Shown one piece after another: positions 1,362 through 1,685 of a stretch of 64,000 nucleotides of DNA. This DNA comes from a virus. The notes beneath the pieces are model-generated. The model was not told the DNA's origin. It did not search any database and worked only from the letters and a program-made list of their open reading frames with translations. The translations under genes and the position numbers were made by a program. The stretch spans positions 1 through 64,000 of IMG/VR virus record IMGVR_UViG_3300043540_000091. One strand, given 5' to 3'. Numbering within the stretch: position 1 is the first letter of the stretch; each line of letters starts with the position of its first letter.

Positions 1362-1685
1362 TCAATCTTCGGTGAACAGCGTCTTCTTGAGGTTCTTGCC
1401 CGCGTCAGGGCCGAGGTCTGCCTTGATGGTCCGAGTCACGGTCACCTCCATCCTGATCTCTTCCGGCCATACCTTCACCGGCTCGTATCTGCCAAGTACA
1501 TCCAATGGCTCGACCTTGGTACTGTACGTCACGCTGGTAGCATATCCGATCAGACGACTGTTCACATAGATCCTTGCTCGTGCGCCCATGAGCATTCTCG
1601 CGGTTCTTCGCCATGCCCATGTGAACGGCACCATGCTCACAGCTGCGGCTGACAGAAGTCCTCTCAGGAACCTTCTTCGATCCAT
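1362..1685 (-). CDS. Tat-signal protein fused to truncated tail-tube paralog
   Basis: N-terminus MDRRRFLRGLLSAAAVSMVP (twin-arginine motif); the rest aligns by eye with the tail tube at 35651..36127 (GARARIYVN vs GARAKVLVN; LGRYEP vs LGRYNP); GAGGAG RBS. Confidence 0.75.
   Translation of the reverse strand: MDRRRFLRGLLSAAAVSMVPFTWAWRRTARMLMGARARIYVNSRLIGYATSVTYSTKVEPLDVLGRYEPVKVWPEEIRMEVTVTRTIKADLGPDAGKNLKKTLFTED

Follow-up and report, generated by a model that had tools for sequence, protein, structure and literature searches.

A rare accessory gene of large Mx1-like myophages that very probably joins a twin-arginine-type leader to half of a contractile-tail tube fold

Background

Tube proteins are known as the building blocks of tails, tailocins, extracellular contractile injection systems (eCIS) and type VI secretion systems (T6SS), and a gene family encoding an exported half subunit would be a new use of this fold. 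The twin-arginine translocation (Tat) pathway, unlike Sec, tolerates folded passengers or complexes as well as basic residues after the leader, and its signal peptides carry the consensus S/T-R-R-x-F-L-K near the N-terminus. Spackle and Imm, two small proteins of phage T4, use Sec-type or membrane targeting and are not known to use Tat. In the tail of Staphylococcus phage 812 the N-termini of the tube subunits insert into the ring above (PMC12886913). A T4 study (bioRxiv 10.64898/2026.03.06.709160) describes how release of the hub after contraction leaves the distal ring of the tube exposed at the membrane, where the exclusion protein Imm binds the tape measure. Here we analyze a gene at positions 1362-1685, minus strand, of a 64,000-nucleotide window, i.e. 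the first 64 kb of the linear virus record IMGVR_UViG_3300043540_000091 (G000; 138,678 b, CheckV completeness 86%). Our data show that it is a real, conserved and rare accessory gene of large Mx1-like myophages, and very probably its product consists of a Tat-type leader joined to the N-terminal half of the contractile-tail tube fold.

Gene structure and start codon

The elements of the gene are the following.

1362-1685 (-): whole gene, leader plus tube-like domain; open reading frame (ORF) of 107 amino acids (aa) and a TGA stop, with nine leader-bearing homologues
1690-1695 (-): Shine-Dalgarno-like GAGGAG, 4 nt 5' of the long ATG (1683-1685), read from the sequence
1614-1685 (-): twin-arginine-type leader, residues 1-24, from sub-cut-off PF10518 and TIGR01409 scores and from family features
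1371-1601 (-): tube-like domain, residues 29-105, homologous to tube residues 4-88 (BLASTP, HHalign)
1593-1595 (-): ATG of Met31, start of the public 77-aa call, which leaves out the leader; a start we judge to be wrong

Both the N-terminus and the tube-like stretch quoted in an earlier note on this DNA are present in the one intact 107-aa ORF. The N-terminus reads M-D-R-R-R-F-L-R, followed by 17 uncharged residues ending in V-P-F-T-W-A-W and then by a basic patch. The public protein (P0001) has 77 aa, from Met31 onward, and its ESM Atlas record likewise begins at residue 31, hence the conserved leader is hidden in both; such genes are probably under-recognised elsewhere for the same reason. 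We favour the long start because the leader is conserved in the homologues. Sequence inspection found no site comparable to GAGGAG upstream of Met31 or Met33. For three homologues the DNA is at hand (loci L035, L042 and L054), and in each of them the stop of the ORF upstream and the long start share 1-4 nt, these upstream ORFs being delimited as the longest ORFs and not by a gene caller; GGAGG precedes the long start in two of the three. Between the stop of our gene and the next gene lie 61 nt.

It is hardly credible that the gene represents the decaying copy left by a tube duplication, or that the ORF was mis-called and owes its Tat-like N-terminus to a chance upstream extension. Such an origin could be suggested by the public call of 77 aa without a leader and by the position of the gene, 34 kb from the tube and near a weak IS1-like ORF, together with its missing C-terminal half. 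However, the architecture persists in the nine leader-bearing homologues, of which eight have 97-121 aa; the leader is conserved as a protein sequence, and a Shine-Dalgarno-like site stands at the long start. Reading in frame past the TGA meets two further stops and gives almost no identities to the C-terminal half of the tube, so no remnant of the second half of the tube is left there. The earlier note had reckoned with homologues that might reveal a decaying fragment; they reveal the opposite, namely a conserved architecture with a conserved leader.

Homology to the tail tube

The comparison rests on a sheath-tube gene pair of the same phage.

35651-36127 (-): tail tube gene, full-length paralogue, 158 aa, directly after the sheath gene; 8q01_A profile match and Foldseek matches
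36140-38908 (-): tail sheath gene, 922 aa; phrog_279 at E 3.6e-19, syntenic with the annotated sheath of Mx1

That the 158-aa protein is the tail tube had been assumed before, and it is now shown, because the ORF adjoins the sheath gene, matches the phage 812 tube and has a model resembling tubes and Hcp. The profile of ten tube homologues matches the tail tube of Staphylococcus phage 812 (8q01_A) over nearly its full length with E 9.1e-9. The AlphaFold2 (AF2) model of the tube has a predicted local distance difference test (pLDDT) of 62.7 and a predicted TM score (pTM) of 0.55, and Foldseek returned 12 matches to it at E<=0.001, the top ones being the phage 812 tube (E 1.2e-7), the monocin tube, Hcp and the PVC/AFP tubes. 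Mx1 has the same sheath-tube pair, with its sheath annotated, and its tube is 42-45% identical to the 158-aa tube.

The domain behind the leader is a clear homologue of this tube. BLASTP aligns residues 29-107 of the 107-aa protein to tube residues 4-87 with 27 of 84 positions identical (E 4e-12 for the single comparison), and the two proteins are each other's sole match in the whole 138,678-b genome. HHalign of family against family gives 99.1% and E 6e-19 for residues 29-105 on tube residues 4-88, and the profile of the leader-bearing family against 8q01_A gives E 0.094. Two motifs are the most conserved ones common to leader-bearing forms and tubes, GARA near the N-terminus and LGRYxP; in the tube model the first falls on the N-terminal strand and the second on the hairpin turn.

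Only about the N-terminal half of the tube fold is kept, as had been claimed from the letters alone: the alignment ends at tube residue 88 of 158 and the protein stops just past the helix, so that ~55% of the fold is retained. The portion kept corresponds in the tube model to strands 3-9, 12-16, 19-40 and 43-66, which include the long hairpin, and to the helix 77-83. Tube strands 89-95, 101-117, 122-131 and 133-136 have no counterpart, and the beta-sandwich is thus incomplete. The earlier view of a Tat-type leader plus N-terminal tube half, encoded by a real gene, is thus far supported.

Twin-arginine features of the leader

Throughout the family the leader carries a twin-arginine motif. Residues 2-8 are D-R-R-R-F-L-R (RRRFLR at 3-8), in agreement with the Tat consensus motif. 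The uncharged stretch of 17 residues (9-25) runs one residue beyond the putative cut, and Pro20 with T-W-A at 22-24 forms a possible signal-peptidase site having T at -3 and A at -1. All ten leader-bearing members carry RRxF[LIVM], at positions 3-8 (6-11 in P0017), and nine of them have K or R next. An uncharged, mildly hydrophobic stretch of 13-18 residues (mean Kyte-Doolittle 1.25-2.1) is found in nine of the ten, and in every member the charges of the eight residues that come after the uncharged stretch sum to between +2 and +4. Pro20 and Trp23 are invariant in an alignment of the seven closest members. PF10518 matches six of the ten at E<0.1, none reaching 22.7 bits, while TIGR01409 matches four, two of which (P0003 and P0004) exceed its cut-off of 16.7 bits. 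The AF2 model of our protein has a helix at residues 3-18. From the sequence alone we infer that the protein is exported through Tat and that its leader is cleaved. A lipoprotein signal was considered and rejected since the leader has no Cys.

The leader is also singular within the genome. Of the 4,776 ORFs that have a start codon and 40 aa or more, the 107-aa protein alone has a canonical RRxFL[KR] N-terminus, and five ORFs pass a loose Tat-like filter. Beyond the window, at G000:C1:131567 (+), we noted an 81-aa ORF with M-R-R and a long hydrophobic stretch but without RRxFLK, resembling a small membrane protein.

The leader is better conserved than its passenger. Over the 45 pairs of the ten members the mean identity is 48% for residues 1-24 and 36% for residues 25-85. 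This could be expected if the Tat machinery itself were the target, i.e. if a fast-folding or oligomerising passenger behind a strong Tat leader occupied or jammed TatBC/TatA and thereby stopped host Tat export or perturbed the membrane during host takeover; the family profile also gives E 0.71, which is not significant, against the CueO signal peptide chain 9e04_H. We regard this as very unlikely, for the passenger retains the tube motifs GARA and LGRYxP across members with identities of 30-46% and a plug would not need them. To our knowledge such a case has no precedent.

A family of leader-bearing half-tube proteins

Searching 1.84 billion representatives exhaustively with HMMER gave 15 matches at E<=0.001. 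Seven of them (P0002, P0003, P0004, P0005, P0009, P0010 and P0012) align from residue 1-2, and the search also returned P0001, the 77-aa call of the protein itself, and the full-length tube-like P0015. The leader-bearing P0016 and P0017 came from a profile search, as did the full-length tube-like P0018. The leader-bearing set hence consists of our protein plus nine others, 31-46% identical to it; nine of the ten have 97-121 aa, and P0012 has 66 aa on a 2.2-kb contig. P0008 and P0013, which are also among the 15 HMMER matches, are short relatives of the tube half with apparently different N-termini; that of P0008 as called is short and basic, that of P0013 hydrophobic without RR. Four long HMMER matches (P0006, P0007, P0011 and P0014) were dropped as repeat-driven, and the two that were inspected, P0006 and P0014, are Ig-like repeat proteins.

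Searches that started from a single protein found much less. A word-index search returned only the protein itself as its 77-aa call, and a scan of viral contigs found nothing, likewise when P0016 was used. In the phage GenBank collection, tblastn with the 107-aa protein gave seven weak rows at chance level (E 2-9), and window positions 1-6300 had no DNA match. No longer or fused form was found at E<=0.001 among 8,000 candidates of 213-2000 aa, which is weak evidence. A pattern scan of species-representative genome contigs found no leader-bearing copy; its two loci are both ordinary full-length tubes, one beside a sheath-like gene and the other near a contig end. The nearest clusters in the ESM Atlas feature space hold viral proteins of 68-93 aa, and some of these clusters carry tube families (PF26461 in 13% and PF09393 in 49% of the members); these proteins could be further truncated tube paralogues or merely partial gene calls.

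Distribution and descent

The leader-bearing form is sporadic among related phages. It occurs in three of the ten related phage records, namely G000, G006 and G008 (the contig of L054), G008 having been reached via the family itself. The record G006 (154 kb, 94% complete) carries the leader-bearing form, the tube and a second full-length tube paralogue. No leader-bearing form turned up in the complete Mx1 genome, in G001 or G007 at 96% completeness each, or in four fragmentary relatives.

The second full-length tube paralogue is a protein of 140-151 aa without a leader, seen in Mx1 (OR576727.2, 138748-139170), G006 (G006:C1:111314-111754) and G001 (G001:C1:14658-15113). The Mx1 copy (WNM70276) follows baseplate J-like and kelch genes. 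No such paralogue was detected in G000 at its completeness of 86%.

The leader-bearing proteins form an old lineage. Our protein is 32-34% identical to the tube of its own phage, while tube orthologues are 69-79% identical to each other. In a tree of 29 proteins over 83 shared columns, one side holds the leader-bearing forms with P0008, P0013, P0015 and P0018, and the other holds the Mx1-like tubes with the second paralogues; the split has a support of 94/92, which is not at the starred level. The relatives of P0015 are tubes of smaller myophages, located beside a 548-aa sheath-like gene. Because of this low identity and the tree split, the protein is not a recent copy of its own tube, so the earlier description of it as a truncated copy of the phage's own tube does not hold. 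It is instead an old, sporadic accessory lineage of ~100-aa leader-bearing proteins.

Genomic neighbourhood

The gene lies among small unnamed ORFs far from the tube gene to which it is homologous. Its distance to the tube gene is 34.4 kb and it is not adjacent to the sheath gene, which agrees with its earlier placement among small accessory genes about 34 kb from the tube. Neither PHROGs nor Pfam was informative for ten flanking ORFs. Two other elements of the window are relevant here.

6313-12864 (-): giant baseplate-wedge protein, 2,183 aa; phrog_6 at E 2.1e-25, 53% identical to its partial homologue at L054
12892, 16416, 21764, 22668, 26095, 31963, 38934, 40328, 42648, 49349 and 54958 (-): exact copies of CCTAATCT

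All 11 exact copies of CCTAATCT in the window are on the minus strand, and several stand just upstream of the starts of virion genes, e.g. those of the 2,183-aa baseplate protein and of the sheath. None lies below 12892, so the absence of a late motif near the gene was correctly noted before. With one mismatch allowed, 35 copies were found against 34.3 expected, which is chance level. A scan of 1-6400 for promoter and terminator consensus sequences gave nothing above shuffles.

The flanking ORFs of L035, L042 and L054 are not homologous to those of the window, except for one 77-aa ORF. It lies between the baseplate gene and the leader-bearing gene at L054 and matches window positions 4042-4329, where the order is the same. 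Two plus-strand ORFs, 4865-5512 and 5824-6267, are found between the baseplate gene and the run of small genes that includes ours. The first of them (215 aa) weakly matches the IS1-family transposase model NF033558 (E 0.01, 15.8 bits against a cut-off of 100) and may be a mobile-element remnant.

Proposed function and its alternatives

Our best guess, to which we give a probability of roughly 0.35 for the mechanism as a whole, is that the protein is exported by Tat, mimics a tube and docks on incoming contractile tubes at their exposed tip. The host Tat pathway would move the small domain across the cytoplasmic membrane. A half subunit left in the cytoplasm could disturb the assembly of the phage's own tube, a risk that the export leader would remove by keeping the domain away from cytoplasmic tail assembly. 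A cut after T-W-A (residue 24) would leave a mature N-terminus that extends one to two residues beyond that of the tube, judging from the alignment. Once in the envelope, either free or tethered, the domain would act as the next tube subunit and dock at the distal end of the contracted tube of a superinfecting relative or of a tailocin. Given the N-terminal insertion seen in phage 812 and the exposed distal ring of T4, a periplasmic domain with a tube-like N-terminus could dock there. The docked domain would then hinder the exit of the tape measure and the DNA, giving superinfection exclusion through structural mimicry. The prediction of a complex between the tube and residues 27-107 scored 0.00 against a mark of 0.32, and it counts neither for nor against binding.

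Such a block at the tube tip, if true, would be a new mechanism of phage-phage competition, in which a virion subunit is mimicked in the envelope. It would also serve as a simple handle on events at the distal tube end while DNA is injected, a stage that structures of T4 and phage 812 are now bringing into view. We speculate further, as a rather doubtful generalisation, that phages of several lineages export Tat-tagged pieces of virions as envelope decoys, the half tube capping the distal ring of related contractile tubes (of phages, tailocins and perhaps T6SS) that puncture the infected cell, and that Tat would be chosen because the piece must fold or must avoid the phage's own assembly before it is exported. 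Subunit mimicry of this kind would then amount to a new class of exclusion or immunity.

Several observations weigh against a Tat-exported mimic of related tubes. The tubes nearest to the family in the tree are not those of its own phage group, which makes the target of any mimicry less certain. Our protein stays below the cut-offs of both Tat profiles, with 16.3 bits against 22.7 for PF10518 and 15.9 bits against 16.7 for TIGR01409. Two members have K or Q at position -3 of the putative cleavage site, and some copies in the family may thus remain uncleaved. The AF2 model of the protein is poor (pLDDT 56.5, pTM 0.28), and Foldseek with this low-confidence model gave no match at E<=0.001, an uninformative result. 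Finally, at L054 a distance of 3 kb separates the gene from the giant baseplate gene, which is upstream of it on the same strand; this position would also fit a late, virion-related role.

Scores below the curated cut-offs could mean that the protein is not translocated at all. The N-terminus would then be an anchor or a plain helix, and a cytoplasmic half tube would regulate polymerisation of the phage's own tube as an initiator, cap or chaperone, or poison the assembly of a competitor. The strongly basic stretch after the hydrophobic segment could retain this part on the cytoplasmic side by the positive-inside rule, and in the relative P0013 the N-terminus as called is hydrophobic and lacks RR. 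Tube paralogues that take part in assembly are frequent, with a second full-length paralogue in Mx1, G001 and G006, and Tab is a precedent for phage-borne blockers of tail assembly (PMC10884400). We nevertheless consider a cytoplasmic role unlikely. The presence of RRxF[LIVM] in all ten members, mostly with Pro and small residues at -5, -3 and -1, would make little sense unless Tat recognised the leader and it were cleaved. The stretch of 13-18 residues, rich in Gly/Ala/Ser/Thr and containing Pro, is a poor candidate for a stable transmembrane helix, being short and weak, and a half tube in the cytoplasm would endanger the tube of the phage itself.

Another possibility is that the protein is exported through Tat and serves the phage's own cycle, either as a hitchhiker carrier for a signal-less partner or as a periplasmic helper of lysis or envelope remodelling. 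As a carrier, the half fold would bind a full tube fold, a virion protein or a lysis protein in the cytoplasm and drag this partner across the membrane; we hold an exported role in the phage's own cycle to be possible, though rather improbable. Tat moves folded proteins and complexes, an incomplete beta-sandwich may invite complementation by a partner, and the leader is unusually conserved. In the window as at L054, the leader-bearing gene is found downstream of the giant baseplate gene, and the two are on one strand. But no conserved neighbour offers itself as a partner, the flanks of the three loci sharing just the 77-aa ORF with those of the window, and the genome encodes no other canonical Tat-type N-terminus. 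A phage TatA was found in none of the three carrier records (G000, G006 and G008), with a control positive in 13 of 14 genomes, and the sporadic distribution speaks against a core role. A Tat-exported tube mimic that docks on incoming tubes stays our preferred reading.

Comparison with known systems

A literature search, with most subscription journals outside its coverage, found no published description of a Tat-tagged or export-tagged tube fragment. By homology the protein is a member of the tube superfamily, but it does not qualify as a structural tube. It has in common with the phage 812-type tubes (PDB 8Q01; PHROG 985) and with its own 158-aa tube the N-terminal strand, the long hairpin, the helix and the motifs GARA and LGRYxP. 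Compared with these structural tubes it lacks the four C-terminal strands, has an export-type leader, is encoded far from the sheath and is dispensable in relatives.

Compared with bacterial Tat signal peptides (PF10518, TIGR01409; e.g. that of CueO), the leader resembles them in RRxFL[KR], a mildly hydrophobic putative h-region, the Pro before a possible small-x-small site and the basic residues that come after. It differs from the usual Tat substrates in scoring just under the cut-offs and in its passenger, a cofactor-less, virion-derived beta domain of 80 residues. Moreover, signal peptides are usually less conserved than the leaders of this family.

Diverged copies of the tube fold with a special job at the tube end are represented by the second tube paralogues (WNM70276 in Mx1), the Mx1-type of which also lies downstream of a giant baseplate gene. 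The distal tube proteins gp48 and gp54 of T4 are likewise diverged copies of the tube fold at the tube end (bioRxiv 10.64898/2026.03.06.709160). The second paralogues differ from our protein in being full length (140-151 aa), leaderless and parts of the virion. When compared with the Mx1 proteins, our protein is closer to the tube (E 1.5e-4) than to the second paralogue (E 0.022).

The proposed role has its nearest parallels in phage proteins that act on the tails of other phages. Spackle and Imm of T4 are small phage proteins of the envelope that act on the incoming tail, through the gp5 lysozyme or the tape measure (PMC7677548; bioRxiv 10.64898/2026.03.06.709160), and our protein may have a similar role. 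Neither of the two is derived from a virion protein, unlike ours. The protein matched nothing in PHROGs or Pfam at E<=1 that would link it to Spackle or Imm, with no direct comparison being made. Tab of a Pseudomonas prophage is also phage-borne and interferes with the tail of another phage, as we propose here (PMC10884400). Its site of action is described there as the cytoplasm, where it affects tail assembly through the tape measure protein, with no homology to tubes indicated; our protein has an export leader.

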